Below, piece after piece: positions 1-20,475 of a stretch of 64,000 bases of DNA. Made by a program: the position numbers and the translations under genes. The stretch spans positions 14,969-78,968 of the forward strand of contig JAFLCQ010000002.1 in assembly GCA_017302815.1 (NCBI GenBank), read 5' to 3'. Below the pieces are notes generated by a model, which searched no databases, was not told the origin of the DNA, and was given only the letters and a program-made list of their open reading frames with translations. Within the stretch, counting starts at the first letter, position 1. Each line of letters opens with the position of its first letter. This stretch comes from Planctomycetota bacterium. GTDB lineage: Bacteria; Planctomycetota; UBA11346.

Positions 1-3000
1 GTGTAGGCCACACGATCAGCTTCGTCGTAGACCGTCCAATCCGACAGGTAGCGCTGGCCATCCACCCAGCGGCGGACTTCGTGGACGCGCTTACGGGTGT
101 CGTAGATGGTATCCGTCCGCTGCCCACCGCGCACGACGGTGACGGGCAGGTCGGTACCCTCCAGGTACGAGGTCGTGGTCGTGATCGCATCGGCGGGCTT
201 CTGGGCCCCCTCCGTCCGGCTGATCTCGCGACCGGCCTCGTCGTAGATGAAGGTGGTGCGCACACCATCGCGATCGGTCCGGGCCTTGAGCAGGTTGGCG
301 TCCGCGCCGGTGCCGAACTCGAAGGTCTCCGCGGTGTTGTTGCCATAGCGGATGCGCCAGACGCGGTTGCGCGTGTCGTAGTCGTAGTTGGTCACATGGC
401 CGCTGGCATCCTTGGACCAGTCCATGCGGCCGGCGGCATCATAATGCCATTCCTTCCGTGCGCGCACCGTCGGCAGGGCCAGATCATCGGGGGGCGATAC
501 TTCGGCATTCCGGAAGCCGCGCGGATCGTATTCGTAGTCGGTGCGCCGGCCCAGCGGGTCGATCTCCGCCAGGACCTGGCCGTCGCTCCGGTACAGCCAC
601 TCCCAGGTGGTGGCGTTGCTGTCGTCCTCGGTGACCCCGTCTTCGGCCAGGACGATGCCCTCGGTGCGGAACCGTAAATTGCCATCCTCATCATAGGTCG
701 ACCGGGTGATGATGCCGTTGGCATCCTGGTGGAAGGTCGGCTGGCGCATGCCGTTGTAGAGCGTCTTCTCGGCGCTGAGGGTGGAGCCGTCCGCGGCGAC
801 GTTGGTGCGGCCGGTGATGGCGCCGGACGCCGGGTCACGGTCGTAGACCGTCGCGACGCCGCGCGGATCCGTCTGCTTGCCCATGCGAAGAAGGCCGTCC
901 GCCTGGTAGTCGGCAACCTTCTCCCAGGTCCAGGTCGACGGATCCGTGGTGAAGCTCCACGCGGTAGCCACGAAGGTGGCATCGGTGACGCCTTCCGTGG
1001 TATCGAGGCGATAGACGCGGCCCGTGCCGCCGATGCCGCCGCCCTCGTAGACATAGATCTTCACCTGGCTGCCGTCGCGCTCCAACCAGTTCAGATATGT
1101 TGGCTCACCGGTGGGACCGACGACACGTCGGACGCGGTTGGGGGACTGCTGCACCACCGTGCCGTCCGCCTGGGTGAAGGCGGTCTTGGTCAGGTAGACC
1201 GACTTGGTGCGGTGCGTCCCTTCGGCGCCGGCGTCCTGGTAGTCCACCACCATGCACTGGCTGGCCGCGTCCTCGCGCAGGCCGAAGGTGGATTGCGTGC
1301 CGTCCGGATAGTCGATGCGGCAGACGCCGGCGATGTCGCCGTCGTAGTGGTAGACGACGTGCTCGCCGGTGGGGTAGGTCAGGTTGGTCACGACCGGCTG
1401 GCCACAGGCCCACCCGTAAGAGAAAGTGACAGTGCGGCCACGCTGATCGATGGCGGAGGCCATTTCCAGCAGGCGTGCACGGGCGTTGCCCAGGTCGGCA
1501 TCCGATGCCGCCGCAGGGAAGGCGTAAGCAATCGACAGTGCGTTGCCGGCACGGTCGCGGATGGCGACCAGACGGCCCTGGCGATCGGCATCGCCGCCGA
1601 GGCCCGCCTGGACCAGTTCAAAGACCCACTGCGTGCCGTCATGCTGGGTCGCGACGGCGGTCACCGCGCTATCGGCGTCCACCTGGGCAGTGCCGTCCGC
1701 CGCCAGCAGACGCATACCGGCGATGGCCGAGCGCTTCTGGTCAGCAAAGGCACCCACGCCGATGCGCGTCAGCGGAATCGGGCTGGCGGCCGATGGATCC
1801 CAGATCTCGCCCGCCTCGCCGTGGTTCCACAGCGTCAACTGGATGTCGAGGTTGCTGAACACGCCCGGACCGAAGGAGCCAGGCCGCGTGAAGTCGGCGT
1901 AGCGGTGGATGCGATTGATGCGCAATTCAGTGGTGATGCCGCCGCCTGCACCAGCGCTGGCACCACACGGCCCGCAGCCGGATGCGCCGCCCGCCGACTG
2001 GAAGTCGGTGGCGGTATGGATGTGCGACAACTGGGGGTTTTCGACGCGGGAGGTCAACGGAGAAATCTGACCGATCGATACGGGGCAAGTGAAATAACCA
2101 GCTTGCGTCGGAATCTGCGCCACCGGTATATCAACAGGATCTGCTACCGCGACACGCATGCTCGATATAGCCCATGGCATCGCCCCACCCATGAATACCG
2201 ACAACTGAGCAAGGCTCGGAGGCAGGTGCGTCGGGTCGATCCATGCGTTATACCACGAATAATCATCACTTTCGCGCACATGCGGGTTGGGATAAAAGAA
2301 TTCCCCATCGTCACCACGCACCTGGTGGGTCAACATGCTCGGGATCGACCACTGATCGCGAACCGAACTCCATTGTCCACTTGGATGCGTCCGCTGAACC
2401 AATCTGGCGAAAATATGCACCGCACCGGAAAAATTGGCGTTCGGCGTAAATTCGAATTCGGCCCTGCCATCGATGACATTCGCCACCGTCCACATGCGAT
2501 GGGGCCCCATCTCGAATGGCGGCCTGACCTCGTCTCGGCTATCGACAACTTCAAGCTCGATGCCGAGTGAGCTTTCAGGATTCCAATACAAGCTACGCGT
2601 AAAACTCAATGCATTGAGCTGCGTATCCACAGCACACACCATTTTCACCGACTTCCCGGGCTCCACTACCCCGGTCGGTCCACTGACCAAACGCACACCG
2701 TCCTCGCTGATGTGAGACAACGCAAAGTCCGTTGTGGTAATGACCGTTCCATCGCTGCACTCTATACACCAGTCGACGTACGCCCATTGCATGGATTCGT
2801 CATATTCCGCCATTACTTGTTCATCCGATATAGATATCAACTGCGCCGTTCCATCAGCATGAATAACAGCACCTGTAGTCAGTATACGATCAACAATTTG
2901 TGGGCTATCGTAGTCAACGAAGTACACACCATTCTCGACATCCGAAATTACGGGACAGCGAATCCATCCCGCATTCACAATCGACACATTCGGCTGGTCC

Positions 3001-3332
3001 AACACAAAGCGGACCGAATCCGCATAATCAATTCCAACATAGAACAGACCGGTGCCTCGGAGATTTGCCGAGGCCATCAAGTTCCCATTCTTGAACCAGT
3101 ATCCCAAAGGCTCCGGGTTGGCTCCATGCGTCCGCGGAATCAGCGCCGTGTTATTGAACACTGTGTACGTCGTCGATGAATCAGCGCCAGCAATGGAACT
3201 GAAATACGGGCCCCATTGGGCAATGGGCATGCCCTGATCGTACCATGTTCTGCTCGGCGGGGACATCGGTTCTTCTGCCGAACACCATACAGCCAGCACG
3301 AGCGCACACAGACCTCTGGCGTAGCGGCTCAT
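1..3332 (-). CDS. Rhs/YD-repeat family protein, N-terminal about 1110 aa; the gene continues past the window start, so the C-terminal tip is not visible
   Basis: Codon-by-codon reverse-complement translation from the ATG at 3330-3332 shows no stop codon down to position 1. The product begins MSRYARGLCALVLAVWCSAEEP, which is signal-peptide-like. About 480 aa of unassigned domain follow, including a GCGPCGASAGAGGG stretch. Then come multiple YD repeats, for example YDEDGNLRFRTEG, EYDPRGFRN, WHYDAAGRMDW, NYDYDTRNRVWRIRYGNN, FIYDEAGREISRTEG and TIYDTRKRV. It is absent from the ORF track only because no stop codon lies inside the window. Its start overlaps the upstream stop in an ATGA configuration. 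Confidence 0.7.
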   Translation of the reverse strand, partial: MSRYARGLCALVLAVWCSAEEPMSPPSRTWYDQGMPIAQWGPYFSSIAGADSSTTYTVFNNTALIPRTHGANPEPLGYWFKNGNLMASANLRGTGLFYVGIDYADSVRFVLDQPNVSIVNAGWIRCPVISDVENGVYFVDYDSPQIVDRILTTGAVIHADGTAQLISISDEQVMAEYDESMQWAYVDWCIECSDGTVITTTDFALSHISEDGVRLVSGPTGVVEPGKSVKMVCAVDTQLNALSFTRSLYWNPESSLGIELEVVDSRDEVRPPFEMGPHRMWTVANVIDGRAEFEFTPNANFSGAVHIFARLVQRTHPSGQWSSVRDQWSIPSMLTHQVRGDDGEFFYPNPHVRESDDYSWYNAWIDPTHLPPSLAQLSVFMGGAMPWAISSMRVAVADPVDIPVAQIPTQAGYFTCPVSIGQISPLTSRVENPQLSHIHTATDFQSAGGASGCGPCGASAGAGGGITTELRINRIHRYADFTRPGSFGPGVFSNLDIQLTLWNHGEAGEIWDPSAASPIPLTRIGVGAFADQKRSAIAGMRLLAADGTAQVDADSAVTAVATQHDGTQWVFELVQAGLGGDADRQGRLVAIRDRAGNALSIAYAFPAAASDADLGNARARLLEMASAIDQRGRTVTFSYGWACGQPVVTNLTYPTGEHVVYHYDGDIAGVCRIDYPDGTQSTFGLREDAASQCMVVDYQDAGAEGTHRTKSVYLTKTAFTQADGTVVQQSPNRVRRVVGPTGEPTYLNWLERDGSQVKIYVYEGGGIGGTGRVYRLDTTEGVTDATFVATAWSFTTDPSTWTWEKVADYQADGLLRMGKQTDPRGVATVYDRDPASGAITGRTNVAADGSTLSAEKTLYNGMRQPTFHQDANGIITRSTYDEDGNLRFRTEGIVLAEDGVTEDDSNATTWEWLYRSDGQVLAEIDPLGRRTDYEYDPRGFRNAEVSPPDDLALPTVRARKEWHYDAAGRMDWSKDASGHVTNYDYDTRNRVWRIRYGNNTAETFEFGTGADANLLKARTDRDGVRTTFIYDEAGREISRTEGAQKPADAITTTTSYLEGTDLPVTVVRGGQRTDTIYDTRKRVHEVRRWVDGQRYLSDWTVYDEADRVAY

Positions 3333-6300
3333 GGCGACACTCCTTCGATCACCATACAGACAACCGCAGGGACTGCCGGCGATGCTAGGCGAACACGCGC
3401 AACGCCTAACTGGAGTATGTCACATGCCAACTCACAGACACCGACCTCAGAGCAACGTGCCGTTCCTGCTGAATCCACACCAATTCTGGCGATGTCGGGG
3501 CGATCCACGATCCAATTGATCACCATGCCGGGAGTTCCAATCACGCGCACGTGCGCCACGGATCCCGTCGTTGATGTCACGCGGCCTGAACCCTCAATGC
3601 GTAGAGGCGTGACTGCGTTAGGAGGAACGCCGGATTCCCACACGCGTTCAGGCACATGCACGCTTGTATACGCCGTGCGATACGCGAAATCCTCAGCCCA
3701 CCGCACCGCATCGAACGACTCTTTCGGCTGCCGCCACAATGGCGATCGCCGTTCAGTGAAGGTCGGTGGCGGATCGGCAATGCCCGGAATCGTGATGGCA
3801 ACCTGCGCAGCGTCAGCATGCACCACAGCGCCGGTGGCGACGGCCAGACGCATGCTGGCCCGCACCGTGAGCCGATCTGGCGCACCGCTTTGAGCCTGCA
3901 GGGTGACGACCCCCTCGTGCTGCCCAGCCGGAATGACCGCAGTCGTAGCAGACAGGATCAGATCGGTCCCGAAGACAGCCGTACCATCGATCGGCTGCAG
4001 GGTAACCGCGACATCCTGGGCAGCAGCATCCGACAGACGGATGGCCACCGGGACCGCACCGGCCGATACCGACACCACCAGACTGGCCGTCGTGAACCCG
4101 ACCGTCGGCGTCACCGTCCAGGAACCGCTAGCAATGGCACTCGGTGTCCACCCAGCGCGTGTCGCCTGCGCTCGTATGGTGGCGCTGCGGGTCAACGTGA
4201 TGGGCAGCGCCGGAGAAGCGTCGGTCGGATCGCTGCCATCCGTCGTCGCATGGATGCTGGCGCCGGGCGTCGCGCTGGTGGCCTGCACCGTCACAGTCCC
4301 GATGACCGATCCGGCCGCCGGTGTCAGCACCGGGGTCGCCACCTGGAAGACATAGTCGACCGCCAACGGGGCGCTGGTCAGCCAGCCCGGCGCCGTGGTC
4401 ACCGCCCGCAGACTGAGGCTGTGATCGAGGTGGATGGGACCGGTCGCAGTCAGCGCACCAGCCTGCGTCGGGTCGCTGTCATCCAGGGTGTAGCGGATGA
4501 CAGCGCCAGGAACGCTGGAGCCCAGCGTCACGTCCTGCTCCTGCGACCAGGGGCCAGCCGCGACATCGGCCACCGGCACGGAGGCCTGGAACTGGTACGT
4601 GGCCTCCGCCACCGGGCTGCTGCTCCAGCCGTCACGGACGGCGATGACGCGCAGGGCCGTCGCCTGCGCCACCGGCAGGCCGGTGTCCGGCCAGACCAGG
4701 CTGGACGAGGTCGGCAGGCTGCCGTCCGTGGTGTAGCGCCCCGTGGCGCCGGCCGGCAGAGCCGCAGTCACCTGGAGCGGTGCCGCGTAGGTGCCCGTCG
4801 CCGGCGTGAGGGTCAGGGCCGGCAGGCCCAGCACGTAGGTCGCCTGCGTCGGAGCCGAGTCGGTCCAACCGGCGGCCCATGACCGTACGGTCAGGGTCTG
4901 GGTGCGGTCGATGGCGATCGGACCGCTCACGTCCGCAGCGGTCGCCGAGGTCATGGGATCCGTGCCGTCGCGGGTGAAGCGCGCCTGGGCGCCCGCCTGC
5001 ACCTGGACCTGCACCTGCTGCACGCTGGCGAAGCTGCCTGCAGCGAGGTCGAGCACCGGCGCGGCAACCGTCAGTACATAGTCCGCCCGCATGACCGGGC
5101 TGTCGGCCCAGTCATCACACATCGCCACCGCCCGCAGCTCGCAGGAGCCCGGCAGCGGGATCGCACCGGTGGCGGCCGGACTGGCAGCAGTGGGCACCGT
5201 GCCATCGAGGGTATAGCGGATCGCCACGTCGGGGGTCGCACAGGCCAGGATCACCTGCTGGGGACCGGTGTAGGCGCCTGCCGGCAGCGATGCGGTCGGC
5301 AGCTCGGGCTGGAGGGTCCAGACGGTGGTCACGATGCCGCTGGGATCCCAGCCGGCACGGACCGCCTGCATCGTGAGGCGGGTCGAACGGGTGATCGCCA
5401 GCGGCCCCGTCACCACCGGGCTGTCGGCGGTGGGAGCCGTACCATCCAGGGTGTAGCGAACCGTGGACCCAGGCGGAATCGCCACCGTCGCAGCGAAGGC
5501 CGCGTGGGCGGTCTGGCTAGTCGGGGTGACTGCGGGTTCGGGCACCTGCAACTGGTAGGTGGCGGATGCCGGAGCGCTCGGCGTCCAGCCGTCACGGAAC
5601 CCGCGCACGCGCAGGGTGGCACTGGCCGCGATCGCCACACCGGCGCCAGGCAGCTGCGGATCGTCGCTGCTCGGATCCGTGCCATCCAACCGATAGCGCA
5701 GGACGGCATCGGGAGTGGCCGTGGTCGCCGTCGCCGGGAACTCGGCGCGATAGAGGCCACCCGCCGGGGTGATCACCGGTGTCGCGACCTGCTGCGTCTG
5801 GCCCTGGATCACATAGCGCGCCGCGAGGACGCCGCTGGGGAAGACGGCCGGCAGGCGGACCTGGAAACGCCAGACCCGGACCGTCACCGTGCCGCCGAAG
5901 GCACGCGCGTAGACCGTCGTTGTCGATGCGACCTGGATGGGAGCGACATAGCGCGGCGAGCGCTCGGTGGGCTCGGAGCCATCCAGGGTATAGCGGATGG
6001 CGGCGCCCGGCGTGGCGCAGGACAGCGCCACCGCGATCGGGGCGGCATAGGTACCGGCGGCCGGGGTGGCCAGGGGACGTGCGGGTACCAGGATCCCACC
6101 CACGTCATAGGTGCCGCTGGCCTGGCGGACGACCGACCCAGCCGCGGATACGACGGCGACCTGCACCTGGGTCGGATCGGTCACCAGAATCGGGCCGGTG
6201 ACCGGCCAGGATGCAGCCGTCGGAGCGCTGCCGTCCACCGTATGCACCAGGCGCTCGCCGGTAGCGAGGCGCGTCACCGGCACGACAGGCACCACCGTGC

Positions 6301-6412
6301 CGTAGGTGCCGGATGGCGGCAGCAGGGCGATGCCGGCACCAGGTCCGCATTCACCTGCCGTGATGGGCCCCACCAGTCCCAGACAGGCGAGGACGACGGT
6401 GATCCATCTCAT
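3329..6412 (-). CDS. Secreted protein with eight tandem CHB_HEX_C-like (chitobiase/hexosaminidase C-terminal, Fn3-like) repeats and a Calx-beta-like C-terminal region
   Basis: Track ORF 3329..6862. The likely start is the internal Met in MRWITVVLACLGLVGPITAGE, a signal peptide, at 6410-6412. Eight roughly 85-aa repeats carry the signature G(T/A)Y..P..V.L.....GA.IRYTLDG(S/T).PT. The C-terminal segment AVTLQPIDGTAVFGTDLILSATTAVIPAGQHEGVVTLQAQSG is Calx-beta-like. The stop TGA at 3329-3331 overlaps the ATG of the downstream Rhs gene at 3330-3332. Confidence 0.7.
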   Translation of the reverse strand: MRWITVVLACLGLVGPITAGECGPGAGIALLPPSGTYGTVVPVVPVTRLATGERLVHTVDGSAPTAASWPVTGPILVTDPTQVQVAVVSAAGSVVRQASGTYDVGGILVPARPLATPAAGTYAAPIAVALSCATPGAAIRYTLDGSEPTERSPRYVAPIQVASTTTVYARAFGGTVTVRVWRFQVRLPAVFPSGVLAARYVIQGQTQQVATPVITPAGGLYRAEFPATATTATPDAVLRYRLDGTDPSSDDPQLPGAGVAIAASATLRVRGFRDGWTPSAPASATYQLQVPEPAVTPTSQTAHAAFAATVAIPPGSTVRYTLDGTAPTADSPVVTGPLAITRSTRLTMQAVRAGWDPSGIVTTVWTLQPELPTASLPAGAYTGPQQVILACATPDVAIRYTLDGTVPTAASPAATGAIPLPGSCELRAVAMCDDWADSPVMRADYVLTVAAPVLDLAAGSFASVQQVQVQVQAGAQARFTRDGTDPMTSATAADVSGPIAIDRTQTLTVRSWAAGWTDSAPTQATYVLGLPALTLTPATGTYAAPLQVTAALPAGATGRYTTDGSLPTSSSLVWPDTGLPVAQATALRVIAVRDGWSSSPVAEATYQFQASVPVADVAAGPWSQEQDVTLGSSVPGAVIRYTLDDSDPTQAGALTATGPIHLDHSLSLRAVTTAPGWLTSAPLAVDYVFQVATPVLTPAAGSVIGTVTVQATSATPGASIHATTDGSDPTDASPALPITLTRSATIRAQATRAGWTPSAIASGSWTVTPTVGFTTASLVVSVSAGAVPVAIRLSDAAAQDVAVTLQPIDGTAVFGTDLILSATTAVIPAGQHEGVVTLQAQSGAPDRLTVRASMRLAVATGAVVHADAAQVAITIPGIADPPPTFTERRSPLWRQPKESFDAVRWAEDFAYRTAYTSVHVPERVWESGVPPNAVTPLRIEGSGRVTSTTGSVAHVRVIGTPGMVINWIVDRPDIARIGVDSAGTARCSEVGVCELACDILQLGVARVRLASPAVPAVVCMVIEGVSP
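4100..6350 (-). repeat. Eight in-frame tandem coding repeats of about 255-260 bp each encoding CHB_HEX_C-like modules (approximate bounds)
   Basis: The protein-level repeats each end in IRYTLDG(S/T).PT or a close variant (RYRLDGTDPS, RYTTDGSLPT, IHATTDGSDPT). The bounds are estimated from protein coordinates and are not exact. Confidence 0.55.
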
Positions 6413-6897
6413 GGCTTGGCCTCGACCGCAGGCGCCGGAGCCGGCGCGGGCATCGGGCGGGCGGCAGCGGCCTGCCGCTCGGCGCGGATCGCCTGCAGGC
6501 GGGCCTGCAATGCCGCCGCCTGGGCGGGATCGGTGGCAACCGCCGATGGCAGCCGCATGTCGGCCGAGCCCGGGTTGGCCATGCGCTCCAGCAGGAGGAC
6601 CTGCTTGCCGTCCTGAGCCAGGACGCCGACGACATGGAAGCCCTGTGCCGCCAGGGCCGCCCAGGCCGCGAGACCGGCAGGATCCCCAGGGGTGATCACC
6701 AGGCTGTCCACCTCGTAGCCCGGCTGCGGACGGCCCAGCATCATATTGCCAGCAGGACGGCTGACCGGGCCACTCGGAGGGCTCGCCTTCGGCGGTTCGA
6801 ATCCGGGCGCCGGCTTGATGGTCGCACCACCCTCTGCGGCATAGCCGGACACGACGGCGCACAGGGCAAGCAATAGGATACGCCTAGACATGTTCAT
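6409..6897 (-). CDS. Small secreted Ala/Pro-rich hypothetical protein (162 aa)
   Basis: Track ORF. The N-terminus MNMSRRILLLALCAVVSGYAAEG is signal-peptide-like. The C-terminus is Ala/Pro-rich with a PMPAPAPAPA stretch. The stop at 6409-6411 overlaps the downstream ATG at 6410-6412 (ATGA). It is first in a three-gene minus-strand operon. Confidence 0.5.
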   Translation of the reverse strand: MNMSRRILLLALCAVVSGYAAEGGATIKPAPGFEPPKASPPSGPVSRPAGNMMLGRPQPGYEVDSLVITPGDPAGLAAWAALAAQGFHVVGVLAQDGKQVLLLERMANPGSADMRLPSAVATDPAQAAALQARLQAIRAERQAAAARPMPAPAPAPAVEAKP

Positions 6898-7060
6898 CGC
6901 TCCTACGAGGGGGCTGGCACCCTAGGGAGACCCCCTGTCCCGACAAGGCGGGGTCACTGTTCAAATCCGGGGCACTCGGAGCGAAATTGTTTCAACTGAT
7001 GCAACCTGGACACCGTTGCCCCTTGTCGGCGCGGAGCCGCCCCCGACACCGCACCGGCAC

Positions 7061-8266
7061 ATGCGACCGCTGCTGGCCCTGTGGATCCTCCTGAGCCTGC
7101 TGCCGGGGGCGGAACCGGGCATCAACCCCCGCCTGCAACGCCTCGATCTGCACGCCGACCAGGTGGCGGAGGTGGCGTTCACCCTGGCGCTGCCTGCGCA
7201 GACATCGGTCAGTGCCGTCGTCGCCAACTGCGCCTGCATCCGCACCCTGACCACACTGCCGATCCAAGCCGACGCCACAGGTGCGGCCAGCATCCGCCTG
7301 CGCGTCACCGGCATGCGCCCCGGCATGGAAGACATCCTGGTCGCCACCAGTGCGGGCATTCTGCGGGCCCAGGTACAGATCGTCGGACCGGGGGCAGGAC
7401 GCGGCCTGGACCAGTTGCAGATCGCCATGCGCGCGGCAGCCAACCATGGCTGGCACATCCTCGCCATCGCCCATGACCTCCGTGGACGCGCCCGGCACTG
7501 CGGCTGCTCCCATGGTGCACTCGGCGGTATCGGCCGCCTCGCCCAGCTGCCACGCCTGGCGACGGAATTGCAGCCGCAGGTGACGGCGTCCTGGATCCTG
7601 ACGGGTGACGTCGACGGACAGCGCACCGGCGTCGGCGCAGCATTGAGCGCTTCAGGATGGCTGCGCGCGGATCCCCGTGTGCTGGTGACCGCGGAGCCGC
7701 TGGCTGCCTTGACTGCCCCCGGCATTGTCGCGGTGATCCCCACGGTTCCGGTCGCCGCCGAGCATCGACGCCTCATCCGGCCTGTCCTGACCGACGGCAT
7801 GGCGGTCGAGATGCTGCTCGTCGATGCCGCCGGGGCCGTGCAGGCCCGCCACACGGTCCCGATCGACGACAGCATACCAGACGACGCCGCGCTAGAGCGG
7901 CGCTTCGACGATCCCCTGAGCGTCACAATCCGTACGGACGCCCAGCCGTCGACCGCGTGCGCCGGCTGCCACGCATCCGCGTTCGCTACCTGGAAACTGA
8001 GCCGCCACGCACGGGCCCTGGACAGCTTGGCGGCAACGGACCGGACCGATACCTGCATCGGATGCCATGTGACCACCACGGCGAGCGCGATCGTCGCGCC
8101 GGGGGTATCCTGTCAGTCCTGCCATACTGGCTCGGACGCCCATGTTGCCGCTGCAGGATCCGTGCGAACTACAGGGACCGTCCAGTGCCGCTCCTGTCAT
8201 GACGCCAGGCACCATCCGACCTTCACGCAGGATGCAGCGTGGCCCATGATCCAACATGGGCGGTAG
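7061..8266 (+). CDS. Secreted tetraheme c-type cytochrome domain protein
   Basis: Track ORF 7016..8266. The start is taken at the Met of MRPLLALWILLSLLPGAEPG, a signal peptide. Four CxxCH heme-binding motifs are clustered in the C-terminal 120 aa: CAGCH, CIGCH, CQSCH and CRSCH. The N-terminal roughly 270 aa have no recognised motif. The overlapping minus-strand ORF 6961..8079 is rejected because it is low-complexity and Arg/Ala/Ser-rich. Confidence 0.65.
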   Translation: MRPLLALWILLSLLPGAEPGINPRLQRLDLHADQVAEVAFTLALPAQTSVSAVVANCACIRTLTTLPIQADATGAASIRLRVTGMRPGMEDILVATSAGILRAQVQIVGPGAGRGLDQLQIAMRAAANHGWHILAIAHDLRGRARHCGCSHGALGGIGRLAQLPRLATELQPQVTASWILTGDVDGQRTGVGAALSASGWLRADPRVLVTAEPLAALTAPGIVAVIPTVPVAAEHRRLIRPVLTDGMAVEMLLVDAAGAVQARHTVPIDDSIPDDAALERRFDDPLSVTIRTDAQPSTACAGCHASAFATWKLSRHARALDSLAATDRTDTCIGCHVTTTASAIVAPGVSCQSCHTGSDAHVAAAGSVRTTGTVQCRSCHDARHHPTFTQDAAWPMIQHGR

Positions 8267-8299
8267 GCGGCACCAACCGTGCACGACCGAATATAATTG

Positions 8300-8317
8300 A
8301 GTGTCCACGTGGACACT
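8300..8317. promoter_or_regulatory. 18-bp perfect palindrome AGTGTCCACGTGGACACT, a candidate operator, immediately downstream of a TATAAT hexamer at 8292-8297
   Basis: The palindrome is perfect, with no mismatch over 18 bp and a CACGTG core. It lies 34 bp after the cytochrome stop and about 190 bp upstream of the 8504 ORF. It is not followed by a T-run, so a terminator is less likely. Confidence 0.4.
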
Positions 8318-8503
8318 GTTGCCGAAATAACTGACGAATCGTGGCAGGAACCAGCCCAAATGCTCACCGTCGTACCCAACGATGACAGCTATGGCCAGGC
8401 GCTGTCCGCCTCAACAGGTCGTGGTGGTCTGGTATCCCCAAGCCCGCTACGTACCGCCATACACGTAGTTGCCGTTGAAGATCGCCACCTACGCTGCCCA
8501 GCC

Positions 8504-8863
8504 ATGGTCCGGCCATTGCTCATCTGCACGCTCGCCTGTGCACTCTCCGCCGCACAGGCACCGACCGTCGTCTTGGATGCCAGTCAACGTATCATCCGCG
8601 TTACAGTGGAGTCCGGAGACTCCTGGAGCTACGAACGCGATGCCACAGGTCGAATATGTGTCGTCAGCATGACCGATCAGCACAAGGCACCGCTCCAGTG
8701 GTTTTGCGTGACGGCAGAGGACGGGACTGCAAGCCACGTTGTCGGACCAGAGGGCACCATTGATCCGCACGGCGGCACGATCCGCTGGGACGGATTGGCC
8801 TTGGTGCTCACTGTGCCTGGGAAGCCCGCCACGGTTCTCGTTGAAGATCCCCGATCGCTCTGA
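8504..8863 (+). CDS. Hypothetical small secreted protein (119 aa)
   Basis: Internal Met of track ORF 8297..8863. MVRPLLICTLACALSAAQAPTVVL is signal-peptide-like. Composition matches the coding strand. The palindromic candidate operator lies about 190 bp upstream. Confidence 0.35.
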   Translation: MVRPLLICTLACALSAAQAPTVVLDASQRIIRVTVESGDSWSYERDATGRICVVSMTDQHKAPLQWFCVTAEDGTASHVVGPEGTIDPHGGTIRWDGLALVLTVPGKPATVLVEDPRSL

Positions 8864-9078
8864 GCGCTGCCTACACTGCCCACAGCAGGTCGATGTCGTT
8901 GGCCACCGCCGCCGCGGGAGACCATTTTCGCCTCGTGAGCCCACATGCCACAACAGGTTGCCAGGACCAGCCCGTTCGATCATCAGTGTGTCCTGCCCAG
9001 AAACCCAGCTTCCTAGCGCTCATGCGGTGAACTCCTGGGATGCATGGTTGGGAGCAGGACAGGACATTGGCCTACGGG

Positions 9079-9744
9079 CTATGCCAGCCGCACCACGAAT
9101 TGATAGCCACTGGTGACAGTACTCCAGGTGGCAGTGACGATGGAGCATTCCATCCACACATCGGACAACTGCTCGCGAACATAGGCCGTGGTCGGGTCCG
9201 CAACCTGCATGGAAGCGGTATAGTCCAGATCCTGCCATGGGAGGCGGTGAACATCGCCGAGTCCGCCGATAGCGCCAGGATGCTGAACAAGAACAACCAG
9301 ACCGACAGTAACGGCGATGCCGAGGACTGTCATGGCGATGCGGGCCCGAGGATCAACCTCGGGTAAGCCGGGATCGAAGTGCAGAGCCGCAGCTCGGCAC
9401 AATCGTTCAACGAGCTGATTGACGGAAATGAGGAAAACGATGGCGCAGATGACTGCAAAAACCCCCATCGACTGGTGCAGGACAGGAAAGGAGATCATGT
9501 AGACACCCACGAAGATGAGCGCAGCCATAGCGAACATCCCCTTCTCATGATCGGAGCCACCACGACCGGACGTCCTGGAGCCAACTGTCGCGAGAAATGC
9601 GACGCAGGCCGCCCCTCCCAGACAGAACGCAAGGATGTGCGCCCCATCAGTGACGATGTGGGCAAAAGCTTTTGGGAAAATGCACCAGGAAGTAATGGCC
9701 GCGAGAACAAACCAGCGACATATGCCAGCCAAGGGTGAATCCAT
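9079..9744 (-). CDS. Hypothetical integral membrane protein
   Basis: Track ORF 9079..9786. It has about four hydrophobic helices: WFVLAAITSWCIF, ILAFCLGGAACVAFLATVG, MFAMAALIFVGVYMISFPVL and VFAVICAIVFLISV. The start is chosen at MDSPLAG. No family was recognised. Confidence 0.4.
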   Translation of the reverse strand: MDSPLAGICRWFVLAAITSWCIFPKAFAHIVTDGAHILAFCLGGAACVAFLATVGSRTSGRGGSDHEKGMFAMAALIFVGVYMISFPVLHQSMGVFAVICAIVFLISVNQLVERLCRAAALHFDPGLPEVDPRARIAMTVLGIAVTVGLVVLVQHPGAIGGLGDVHRLPWQDLDYTASMQVADPTTAYVREQLSDVWMECSIVTATWSTVTSGYQFVVRLA

Positions 9745-10042
9745 GTGGCGGATTCTGGCAACGTGGATGAATGTGAGCAAGTGCAACCCACGTCCGCTTC
9801 AAGGACGCCAGCTACACCAGGCGCTGTCCTTAGGAAACATAGTATCACAGGCTCTGCGGTGAGTATCTGGAGATCGCATACGAAACAGAGGGAAAGCAGG
9901 TGTGGACCAGAATGCCATCACAATAGACAAACTGTTTCAACATCACAGGAAGGATCGATATCGGAAATGCGTGATCAGCATGGCATTTCAACAGAAGGCA
10001 CCGAACCTGCGGTTTTGCGTGACTGCACGCAATGCGCCTTGA

Positions 10043-18948: not shown

Positions 18949-19257
18949 AAATATATGCATATGCGCAGATACCCGTAAAAATGGAATACCCCTTCGCCAT
19001 TGTAGTTTACTCCACACTAAAACATAAAATCCACAGAAACGCCGCAGCGCCACCTCGGGTGTCTGTTCAAGACGGCGCGCACCGTTGTTGTACAATTATT
19101 CAATTCCCGGAACACTCGACAACCAAAATACCTACGCTTCAGTAGAACATCTTCGATCCGTCGCAAATATGTAAAATACACAACATTCATTAAACCAATT
19201 TACACAGAATAGATATTCACAACGCTCCAAACAGACAGACCAACACGGCGATTCCAC

Positions 19258-19668
19258 TTAAAGTTTTATATACCACAAATATTGACCAGGTACACCCCCT
19301 TCAATACGATGCGCCACAAAGCAAACCTGCACGACCCAACCAACAACAGCAAGTAAACATAAAGGCAATACAGCAAGCCCAAACATCCACACGAGAAAAT
19401 ACAAAACAAGCGAAACAATGCCCCAAAATACATTAAAATCAAGAGCCGCCGACAAATGACTCGACAGACACACATCTTGTTTACGATCGGATTCGCGAAA
19501 CATAAAAAGCAAGACAGGGATTACATGGCCCAGCAAAGGAAACAGCAAACCAAGCAGAGTGGCGACGTGCATAGCACTCAAGCGGCCCGCCATCACCCTG
19601 TCATCACCAGGCAACATTAGAATCCCCTTGGTGATGGCCTTACCTTTATTTATTCTGCGCATTCGCAA
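19258..19668 (-). CDS. Small integral membrane protein (DUF4870-like), encoded in the AT-rich island
   Basis: Track ORF. Three hydrophobic helices flank a RESDRKQDV...HLSAAL segment. Composition is low-GC compared with the flanks. Start is uncertain. Confidence 0.4.
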   Translation of the reverse strand: MRMRRINKGKAITKGILMLPGDDRVMAGRLSAMHVATLLGLLFPLLGHVIPVLLFMFRESDRKQDVCLSSHLSAALDFNVFWGIVSLVLYFLVWMFGLAVLPLCLLAVVGWVVQVCFVAHRIEGGVPGQYLWYIKL

Positions 19669-19992
19669 TCCTGCAAAAATGAGTTATTTAACCGACGTAC
19701 ATATTCGACACAAAACATCACACACGAAAACGCCGATATCCTCACGCGCACAATGACGCTTTGATAGTTAAACAAGCATCGCATATCTCCAATGCCTATA
19801 GCCACAGTAATATTTTCTGGACTCGAGAACATATGGATGTCATTGGGAGCGCACAACTATGCCACCGCCATTACGCTTTGCCACCCCGATTGTTGATGCA
19901 CAAAACCCCATAACCGTAACCACCAGGAACACCAAATGCAGACTCATGGGACATTCACGGCCACCAGCGATAGGACACAATGAATTTCCAGA

Positions 19993-20475
19993 CTACAGGC
20001 CATGTCCACAAAATACCGACAGCGCACGCACCACCAGTGCATGATCCGCACGATCAGAATACCCGGAGACAGTCACATATCCGAAAATTCCCACATCGTG
20101 CCGTCGGAGCGGAAATCCTCCTCCACATGAAGCGTGATCAGCCTGCGCCGCTCCACGACAAGCCGGATAATCCATACCATATCGAGCACAGCGAAGATAC
20201 ACCAACAGCGAACTTATACCTGTGATTTGCATAGTGTTCTGCTTGCACCGAATCAAAGCATTGCTTTCCATTGACATTCCAGCCATCGCATGACGAAAAA
20301 GACAGCGACCATCACAGGTCACATCGGCAACAATGCCAACACCATCAGCCATTGCCAATGCGATGATATGCAATCCCAGATCCAGGGCGTCGCCATGTGT
20401 AAAATCACGAAACACCAAACGACGTTCCTGATCCTCAACCTCAAGAATTTCCGCATCGAGTTCTGATAAGTTCAA
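19993..20475 (-). CDS. UPF0303 (DUF336/GlcG-like, heme-degrading-fold) family protein, low-GC paralog
   Basis: Track ORF. Family blocks are MNLSELDAEILEVEDQERRLVFRDF, IRCKQNT and CGGGFPLRRHDVGIFGYVTVSGYSDRADHALVVRAL. It aligns along its length with the ORF at 25789..26265, which has QERVLVFPKF, RRKRNT and GGGFPIRVRGAGIVGYVVVSGLPHRDDHALVIGAL. Confidence 0.6.
   Translation of the reverse strand: MNLSELDAEILEVEDQERRLVFRDFTHGDALDLGLHIIALAMADGVGIVADVTCDGRCLFRHAMAGMSMESNALIRCKQNTMQITGISSLLVYLRCARYGMDYPACRGAAQADHASCGGGFPLRRHDVGIFGYVTVSGYSDRADHALVVRALSVFCGHGL

Follow-up and report, generated by a model that had tools for sequence, protein, structure and literature searches.

What kind of system is encoded where a gene for a small secreted protein, a gene for a repeat-rich protein and a gene for an Rhs/YD-repeat protein follow one another with overlapping ends? 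This question is raised by the beginning of a 64,000-nt stretch of a Planctomycetota bacterium (assembly GCA_017302815.1, contig JAFLCQ010000002.1, positions 14,969 to 78,968; hereafter, the window), in which three minus-strand genes, called here g1 (6897..6409), g2 (6412..3329) and g3 (from 3332 to past position 1), lie in tandem. Our answer, given with moderate confidence, is that a planctomycete here encodes a polymorphic toxin of the Rhs/YD type that is exported by Sec. The constant core of the operon would be two genes, the partner gene g2 and the Rhs gene g3, together with an immunity gene, and it would work by the mechanism described below.

An identical public contig was used to extend the locus beyond position 1. 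The exact g2 protein is encoded on a Logan contig of 15.4 kb (run SRR13786856), of which 13,136 nt were used, designated locus L001; these are 100% identical to window positions 1..6464 (6464 nt) and continue for 6672 nt beyond position 1. The g3 frame is uninterrupted from 3332 to 1 (1110 codons), and the full product read on L001 has 2570 aa. An earlier interpretation made from the letters of the window only (the sequence-only reading) had named g3 an Rhs/YD protein, and this is borne out: the Pfam family RHS_repeat (PF05593) matched the in-window part with an expectation value (E) of 1.5e-15 and the full protein with 5.3e-52 over 9 stretches. Matches in NCBIfam (YD_repeat_2x; TIGR01643, E 7.6e-10) agree with this, and precomputed matches to TEN_YD-shell (PF25023) exist for g3 and for the Rhs protein of a distant locus, L014. 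The first 395 residues (2148..3332, minus strand) hold the signal peptide and a hypervariable N-terminal region of low GC content, for which no credible Pfam or PDB match was obtained, only weak sub-threshold ones (Ig_2, E 0.007; one PDB chain, E 0.011). With residues 396-1110 (1..2147, minus strand), where RHS_repeat matches, the conserved Rhs/YD shell begins, and within it the gene leaves the window.

The Rhs core of g3 ends at aa 2279-2304 with the pattern DPMG-x17-DPTGE (sequence FRRRMYSPDQGRFVSRDPMGYVDGHSLYGAYFVPNATDPTGE), in which two DPxG motifs stand 21 residues apart (D2279 and D2300) after FRRRMYSPDQGRF. As a sequence motif this is the canonical Rhs aspartyl-autoprotease signature, and cleavage is predicted. 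It is followed by a 266-aa (~29 kDa) C-terminal domain, to which neither Pfam (even at E<=10) nor a PDB sequence search assigned a family. An open reading frame (ORF) of 161 aa begins 2 nt after the g3 stop; its strongly hydrophobic N-terminal segment (Kyte-Doolittle 2.4) marks a transmembrane (TM) or membrane-anchored protein, probably the immunity protein. A toxin tip and an immunity gene had been expected beyond position 1, and the candidates for both were located there, on L001. Judged by its core-end motif, its variable C-terminal domain and the small membrane protein encoded next to it, g3 is a bona fide Rhs protein.

Two further observations concern the g3 product. A permuted NlpC/P60- or LRAT-like enzyme was considered for the C-terminal domain from a GHVMLVV...MCPDYV pattern seen by eye; no tool supported this and it is not claimed. 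Near the C-terminal end of the shell there is an insert of ~200 aa (aa ~1985-2190; L001:~9085-9700), conserved in loci L010 and L006, that by eye resembles a malectin- or carbohydrate-binding-module-like lectin (VNFQP...YGW...NGTYPV...) and found no match in Pfam even at E<=10.

The protein encoded directly before g3 is best recognized by its end. Residues 878-1027 of g2 (3332..3781, minus strand) comprise a Pro linker, a helical motif (FDAxRW..DxxYRxxYL..PxRVW) and an eight-strand immunoglobulin (Ig)-like sandwich, and with this C-terminal domain (CTD) the protein ends. When g2 of the window was compared with its counterpart in L010, only the last ~145 aa aligned, with 44% identity. In a HMMER search with the CTD (150 aa) against 1.84e9 cluster representatives, no more than 19 proteins, between 163 and 1554 aa long, were retrieved. 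All 19 have the domain at or near the C-terminus, with at most ~95 residues beyond the matched stretch, and in none is it fused to Rhs. An AlphaFold 2 (AF2) model built on 17 sequences (alignment A2; pLDDT 89, pTM 0.82) showed three short helices with the motif and then the eight-strand sandwich. The closest folds were S-layer SbsC and the Ig domains of intimin/invasin, which are generic bacterial Ig-like folds; a PDB sequence search of the g2 end gave nothing usable. No second copy of the CTD was found in the 64-kb window.

In front of the CTD, the 1027-aa g2 product is of a different and exchangeable make. Residues 1-780 (4073..6412, minus strand) hold a signal peptide and a series of CHB_HEX_C_1/Fn3_assoc beta-sandwich repeats, probably the variable binding or stalk part. 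The sequence-only reading had counted eight of these repeats; there are nine, as CHB_HEX_C_1 matched over 9 stretches (E 7e-105, besides Fn3_assoc and CHB_HEX_C) and the motif D[GD][ST]xP[TSM] occurs nine times. CHB_HEX_C_1 arrays recur in other CTD proteins, while further members of the family carry NHL/TEN_NHL with PKD and Big_9 modules (P0022, P0028), PA14, GLEYA, PKD and Big_9 (P0029) or Ig/fn3 arrays (P0024) in their place. In L010 and L008 the repeats are replaced by domains lacking a Pfam match at E<=0.01, with a weak fn3 in the L008 copy only; by eye, the N-terminal part of the L010 protein has a discoidin- and fn3-type look, and it found no match in Pfam. By sequence conservation the defining part of the partner is its last ~150 aa and not the CHB_HEX_C repeats by which it had at first been characterized.

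Between the repeats and the CTD lies a beta-sandwich, aa 781-877 (3782..4072, minus strand), for which Calx-beta had been proposed. The whole-protein Pfam scan reported no Calx-beta at E<=0.01, and the isolated segment reached 18.2 bits (E 0.0027), where the gathering score is 27. Yet 5/8 orthologous segments matched Calx-beta (best E 3.7e-7), and a profile of the orthologous segments retrieved the NCX1 Calx-beta domains from the PDB at E 1e-4. The segment is thus Calx-beta-like by its orthologues and their profile, and sub-threshold as a family assignment for g2 itself.

The order of genes was compared across related loci, denoted by our own L and P numbers. An Rhs gene lies directly downstream of the CTD-bearing gene in 8/8 loci with a readable downstream side (the window locus, L005, L010, P0008, P0013, L012, L013 and L014). 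Identity of the Rhs proteins ranges from 29 to 73% across these loci and is 29-36% in the most distant ones, where the N-terminal architectures of the partners are unrelated. In P0008 (GCA_041442895.1), g1 is followed by a 1282-aa CHB_HEX_C_1 protein and a 2468-aa Rhs protein, each after a 4-nt overlap, and P0013 has g1, a 1017-aa CHB_HEX_C_1 protein and a 2562-aa Rhs protein with overlapping junctions. L005 holds g1, a 951-aa CHB_HEX_C_1 protein and, after ATGA, an Rhs frame open up to the contig end, and L010, from the metagenome-assembled genome (MAG) 'Planctomycetota bacterium maxbin.317', has g1, GTGA, a 661-aa protein, ATGA and a 2600-aa Rhs protein. Four truncated loci (L002, L007, L006, L008) contain g1 and then a g2-type gene with overlapping junctions. 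Among the distant loci, L012 has an NHL partner and then an Rhs gene (RHS_repeat 1.5e-52), L013 a PA14 partner and then an Rhs gene 33% identical to g3, and L014 an NHL partner, a 2570-aa Rhs gene and a gene for a 143-aa TPR protein; in these three the partner and Rhs genes do not overlap and are 22-48 nt apart. After the Rhs gene, the window locus and L010 encode a small immunity-like protein of the TM kind; its counterpart in L014 is the TPR protein. Because the distant loci have the partner and Rhs genes without g1, the conserved core is this pair and not the triad.

In L006 (positions 1177-7717 and 8427-8888) there is, in addition, a stand-alone gene for a 1937-aa Rhs protein that has a short N-terminus and lacks a partner, and after it comes an ORF of 261 aa that is PLA2-like. 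As the Rhs core end runs on into this ORF in another frame, either a frameshift is present or one gene was called as two. The stand-alone Rhs gene lies between the cytochrome-like gene and a g1-g2 pair, so Rhs loci stand in tandem in some relatives.

The behavior of the CTD is also what might be seen with a sorting or anchoring signal, comparable to the C-terminal domain of the type IX secretion system or to S-layer-type attachment, and a small share of our confidence goes to this explanation. The adhesin would then be directed to the surface independently of the Rhs protein, and the two would be co-regulated and form no complex. The constant place of the CTD at or near the C-terminus of unrelated extracellular architectures is as such a signal would have it, and so are SbsC and the intimin/invasin Ig domains as closest folds. 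However, a general signal should mark many proteins per genome, and here there are only 19 clusters among 1.84e9 and no second copy in the window; moreover, every one of the eight readable members precedes an Rhs gene across the whole range of Rhs identity (29-73%). We regard a sorting signal as unlikely and favor the CTD as a part of a partner dedicated to the Rhs protein.

For such a toxin operon, the distribution of conserved and variable parts is informative. Between aa ~390 and aa 2303, the Rhs proteins of the window, L010, L005 and P0033 share a shell of 72-74% identity (73% for the window vs. L010); the first ~340-490 aa of the same proteins are mutually unrelated, and so are their C-terminal domains. 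In the distant clade (P0034, L012, L013, L014) the Rhs N-terminal regions are weakly related, with 23-30% identity. Rhs genes classically combine a core rich in GC with a C-terminal extension rich in AT. GC content along the window locus is 0.714 for g1, 0.716 for the g2 repeats, 0.596 for the g2 CTD, 0.537 for g3 aa 1-395, 0.653 for the g3 shell (GC3, at third codon positions, 0.82), 0.471 for the g3 C-terminal domain and 0.451 for the immunity gene, and the pattern is repeated in L005, L010 and L014. By composition and variability, the low-GC hypervariable N-terminal region of g3 and the partly low-GC CTD before it are a second cassette-like zone. Diversification looks cassette-wise, since the Rhs N-terminal region and the toxin and immunity pair differ between similar loci and have a foreign GC content; the binding modules of the partner also differ between loci.

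The same loci could be seen as a teneurin-like system of adhesion or social behavior and not as a weapon, serving cell-cell or cell-matrix contact (e.g., aggregation on polysaccharide particles), with a C-terminal domain that is no deployed toxin. TEN_YD-shell matches and the NHL/TEN_NHL modules in the L012 and L014 partner genes are in line with it, the rest of the window is rich in glycoside hydrolases as in a particle-attached polysaccharide degrader, and a communication role for the bacterial teneurin-like proteins is left open in the literature (PMC13018210). Against this stand the intact autoprotease motif, a C-terminal domain that is exchanged between almost identical shells and is foreign in GC content, and, in three loci, a gene for a small membrane or TPR protein that abuts the stop codon; features of this kind are the signature of polymorphic toxin-immunity pairs. 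This explanation we consider to be rather improbable, slightly more so than the sorting signal, and the polymorphic toxin operon remains the preferred one.

How tightly the genes of this operon are joined was read from their junctions. The sequence-only reading had described three minus-strand genes linked by ATGA stop/start overlaps at 6409-6412 and 3329-3332, and both overlaps were confirmed. On the minus strand the g1/g2 junction (6412-6409) reads gccaagccATGAgatgg; g1 ends there, and the ATG in it opens g2. Equivalents of this overlap are present in L002, L005, L006/L007, L008, L010 and the P0008 and P0013 loci. The g2/g3 junction (3332-3329) reads tcgccATGAgccgc; g2 ends in ...gtgtcgccATGAgccgc, the ATG inside which opens g3. 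ATGA occurs at this junction also in L005 and L010, and 4-nt overlaps in the P0008 and P0013 loci. Purine-rich, Shine-Dalgarno-like motifs stand before each start: AGGAG for g1, GAGG for g2 and GAAGGAG for g3. A 4-nt overlap alone is unremarkable, because it is the commonest type of overlap in bacterial operons. All readable g1/g2 and g2/g3 junctions of the related high-GC loci overlap, as ATGA, GTGA or GTGATG, and conservation of the overlaps across these loci is above chance. Overlapping stop and start codons suggest translational coupling; the earlier claim of 1:1 coupled translation goes beyond this, as the overlaps do not imply such a stoichiometry. The N-termini of all three products have a basic n-region, a hydrophobic stretch and a cleavage region of small residues, so that by eye they look like Sec signal peptides, as had been proposed. 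A promoter is presumed, from its position between the gene calls, in the divergent intergenic region upstream of g1 (6898..7015); a promoter and terminator scan found no sigma-70 consensus match in 6898..7015 and nothing above chance. We conclude that g1, g2 and g3 form one tightly packed, conserved operon. Neither a break in the g3 frame, nor an absent RHS_repeat match, nor junctions without overlap in the high-GC relatives came to light, and on these counts nothing refutes the three-gene claim.

The first gene of this operon, g1 (6409..6897, minus strand), is not a constant member of the system. As read it encodes 162 aa. Behind the signal peptide, the mature N-terminus is Pro-rich (AEGGATIKPAPGFEPP); a small core and a long helix follow, and the protein closes with a Pro/Ala tail. 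Translation probably begins at the second ATG (6891), for a product of 160 aa; this start is favored by its spacing to AGGAG and by the homologue P0001 (97% identical), which has 160 aa. Pfam and NCBIfam gave no match for g1. The family is tiny, with 13 homologues among 5.8e9 clusters (alignment A1), and a profile scan of genome and metagenome contigs with this alignment returned only one MAG (3 loci) and one further contig. In the AF2 model a beta-alpha-beta-beta core and a long helix are flanked by Pro-rich segments (pLDDT 69 overall, core ~90); comparison of the model with PDB folds gave nothing significant, and a PDB sequence search of g1 gave nothing usable. The gene occurs without partner genes in L003/L009 and L011 and is absent from the distant loci L012, L013 and L014, which does away with the three-gene synteny as a constant unit. 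In the P0012 locus (metagenome 3300059473), a g1 homologue is followed by a 135-aa gene and then by a 4256-aa giant toxin of the Calx-beta/PT-HINT/AHH type. The g1 family thus associates with two unrelated polymorphic-toxin scaffolds, and g1 is an accessory of the system that is confined to its high-GC subclade.

That three unrelated secreted proteins were simply packed together in one lineage, their adjacency being inherited synteny without functional coupling, is a much fainter prospect. Most triad loci do come from closely related high-GC Planctomycetota, and g1 also occurs alone. Nevertheless, the order of g2-type gene and Rhs gene is kept at a very different GC content (0.58 in L014), at 29-36% Rhs identity and with wholly different N-terminal modules of the partner, and start/stop overlaps are kept at every junction read in the high-GC clade.

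In the mechanism that we propose for the Sec-exported toxin operon, the g1, g2 and g3 products would all be exported by Sec. The g3 protein would be a closed Rhs cocoon, composed of the signal peptide, the hypervariable ~390-aa N-terminal region, the shell, the autoprotease motif and the 266-aa toxin. By analogy with solved Rhs, Tc and teneurin-like protein (TLP) shells (PMC13018210), it would cleave itself at the DPxG motifs and keep the toxin inside the shell. The 161-aa membrane-anchored protein would neutralize the toxin in the producer, and because this immunity candidate is membrane-anchored, a toxin acting on the envelope or periplasm is suggested. The exchangeable beta-sandwich, lectin or propeller modules of g2 would attach to a surface, which may be the coat of the producer itself or a target cell. 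We infer that the CTD is the piece coupling g2 to the Rhs subunit, by which the cocoon would be tethered to the producer surface or directed to target surfaces. In this way the 'adhesion modules + YD shell + toxin' design, which bacterial TLPs and WapA have on one polypeptide, would be divided here between g2 and g3. The g1 protein may serve as a periplasmic chaperone or tether. What the sequences show is the structure of the genes, their conservation and domain content, the core motif and the mosaic of composition and sequence; outer-membrane export, docking of g2 and g3, encapsulation, toxicity, immunity and the target are steps that we infer.

Several points weigh against this proposal. The signal peptides of g1-g3 were judged by eye from the sequence, and no outer-membrane export component was found next to the triad in the window. 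The modeled CTD has a generic Ig-like fold, which says nothing specific on docking. It is also 40-45% conserved, which would be odd if it binds the N-terminal region of the Rhs protein, as that region has no similarity from one locus to the next; any contact of the CTD is more likely to be made on the conserved shell or plug. Toxicity of the g3 C-terminal domain is read from its position and variability only, and neither the domain nor the immunity candidate has a recognizable family. Shared ancestry accounts for part of the synteny in the high-GC clade. Finally, the sample comprises about 15 loci, several of them truncated, in metagenome assemblies from few related lineages.

With regard to export, a gene of the Omp85 superfamily (35.5 bits, gathering score 24; product ending in ...LSYGLSF) occupies L014:1-1476, 240 nt upstream of the NHL partner and Rhs genes and on the same strand, and could be an export component. 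An Omp85 transporter was rejected as a part of the system: it is present at this one locus only; tblastn with the L014 protein found no homologue in the window, and none was seen in the remaining loci.

The closest relatives of the proposed system in the literature are the bacterial TLPs (Raoelijaona et al., Nat Commun 2026, PMC13018210), which are single polypeptides with Sec signals, variable N-terminal adhesion modules, an FN-plug, NHL and a YD shell; their C-terminal domain is polymorphic, and an immunity gene lies downstream. A TIP domain is carried by 96% of them. The six phyla reported for them do not include Planctomycetota, and they are described as having 'no obvious delivery machinery' (PMC13018210). 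The window locus shares with them the Sec signal peptide, the YD/Rhs shell, the DPxG...DPxG motif, the polymorphic C-terminal toxin, the adjacent downstream immunity gene, variable adhesion modules on the N-terminal side and the lack of a known dedicated injection machinery, and TEN_YD-shell matches g3. In contrast to TLPs, its adhesion modules belong to another gene, upstream of g3, the product of which has a dedicated Ig-like domain at its end, and they include an NHL/TEN_NHL propeller in L012 and L014; the N-terminal ~390 aa of g3 are hypervariable, and its C-terminal domain has ~29 kDa vs. an average of ~15 kDa in TLPs. A TLP has NHL in the same polypeptide, next to the shell; no NHL/TEN_NHL match was found in g3 at E<=0.1, and in Pfam, the only source applied (the authors of the TLP study have their own HMMs), no FN-plug or TIP-type family matched g3.

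A second comparison is with polymorphic toxins of the Sec or 'T2SS' (type II secretion) route, catalogued with a signal peptide, RHS repeats and no signature neighborhood genes (Zhang et al. 2012, PMC3482391, Table 1); planctomycetes are among the lineages with many toxin domains there, Sec-signal Rhs toxins included (PMC3482391). The statement that the context is unprecedented was for this reason overstated: Sec-signal Rhs toxins were on record in 2012 (PMC3482391), and YD-shell toxins with N-terminal adhesion modules in 2026 (PMC13018210). WapA-type Sec Rhs toxins resemble the locus in the signal peptide, the RHS repeats, the variable C-terminal toxin and the immunity gene, whereas in the locus a specific partner family (plus g1 in one subclade) is fixed upstream, and the Rhs N-terminus is a second variable cassette.

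A Tc (ABC) toxin-like system or an Rhs effector delivered through type VI secretion (T6SS), with g2 as A component or carrier and eukaryotic or prey-cell targets, is very improbable: Rhs/YD cocoons do make up BC in Tc toxins and are often carried by the T6SS (PMC13018210), but g1-g3 match no TcA, TcB, SpvB, PAAR, VgrG or Eag family and, unlike Tc and T6SS substrates, have signal peptides of the Sec type, the ten largest further window ORFs scanned gave no match to a Tc or T6SS family, and g3 alone is long enough for the whole shell. Common to Tc complexes and the toxin operon proposed here are a Rhs/YD cocoon around an autoproteolytically released toxin, a multi-gene operon and receptor-binding domains in a separate subunit; unlike Tc, the locus has neither a TcA pore former nor a TcB/TcC split nor SpvB/TcdB_mid, and all its proteins have signal peptides. 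The immunity gene downstream points to bacterial targets. With T6SS Rhs effectors (RhsA, Tse15, RhsP) the locus has in common the Rhs shell, the C-terminal cleavage motifs, the polymorphic toxin and the immunity gene, and an N-terminal region that sets the delivery route is counted among the likenesses; it differs in having Sec signal peptides instead of PAAR, prePAAR, VgrG and Eag families in g1-g3. Neither vgrG nor eag is among the neighbors, where a multihaem-cytochrome-like gene and glycoside hydrolase genes adjoin instead. For two-partner secretion (TPS) and contact-dependent inhibition, no TPS or haemagglutination-activity domain matched g1-g3, and tblastn revealed no Omp85 homologue in the window. 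Taken in this company, the locus is a split, partner-dependent form of the Sec-type Rhs/teneurin-like polymorphic toxin, and its apparent novelty lies in having a dedicated gene for the adhesion modules, upstream of the Rhs gene and separate from it.

A more far-reaching version of this proposal can be put forward only tentatively. The loci may represent a binary class of Sec-exported Rhs toxins, in which a separate targeting or display subunit plugs interchangeable lectin, propeller or Ig modules onto the cocoon by a C-terminal docking domain and the N-terminal region of the cocoon is a second recombining specificity determinant, so that binder, N-terminal region and toxin with immunity would be three independently swappable cassettes. 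How Sec-exported Rhs and teneurin-like toxins are displayed and delivered is an open question, stated as such for the TLPs (PMC13018210), and a binary class, if real, would supply the delivery or presentation component missing for them. A rare partner family that in readable loci always stands directly upstream of the Rhs gene, with exchangeable modules and a conserved CTD, offers a concrete handle on this question. If the Rhs N-terminal region sets target specificity, the logic of polymorphic toxins would be extended; should partner and Rhs protein not bind each other, what is left is a further toxin-immunity operon of the Sec-type Rhs class, from an environmental planctomycete.

As for the surroundings, an ABC-3C conflict system (CTD7, MC3 and a LmuB_C-type gene) lies at L001:11422-13136, on the strand of the triad and 88 nt after the immunity candidate. 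Its GC content (~0.48) is low, like that of the cassette of toxin and immunity gene, so the 3' end of the Rhs gene may border a defense or conflict island. On the other side, divergent to g1, the plus strand at 7016-8266 encodes a 416-aa secreted protein with four CxxCH motifs and matches to Cytochrome_C554, Cytochrome_C7 and Paired_CXXCH. A minus-strand gene of similar size adjoins g1 in P0008 (407 aa, weak Cytochrome_C554) and in P0013 (414 aa, no Pfam match), and fragments homologous to the 416-aa cytochrome-like protein are found at the ends of L002 and L006; this may be a functional link or mere shared synteny.

The large ORFs scanned between 10043 and 62323 encode mostly glycoside hydrolases or related proteins, including two alpha-L-fucosidases, two GH2 proteins, GH42, GH95, a heparinase II/III and a CBM9 protein, which suggests that the host is a polysaccharide-degrading planctomycete. 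In the same region, ORFs resembling AraC-type regulators were noted by eye only. Two stretches of the window have a low GC content, 8001-10000 (0.56-0.62) and 19001-20000 (0.45), vs. 0.64 for the whole window and ~0.70 in the flanking 1-kb bins. They contain small membrane-protein-like ORFs at 9079-9786 and 19258-19668, both on the minus strand.

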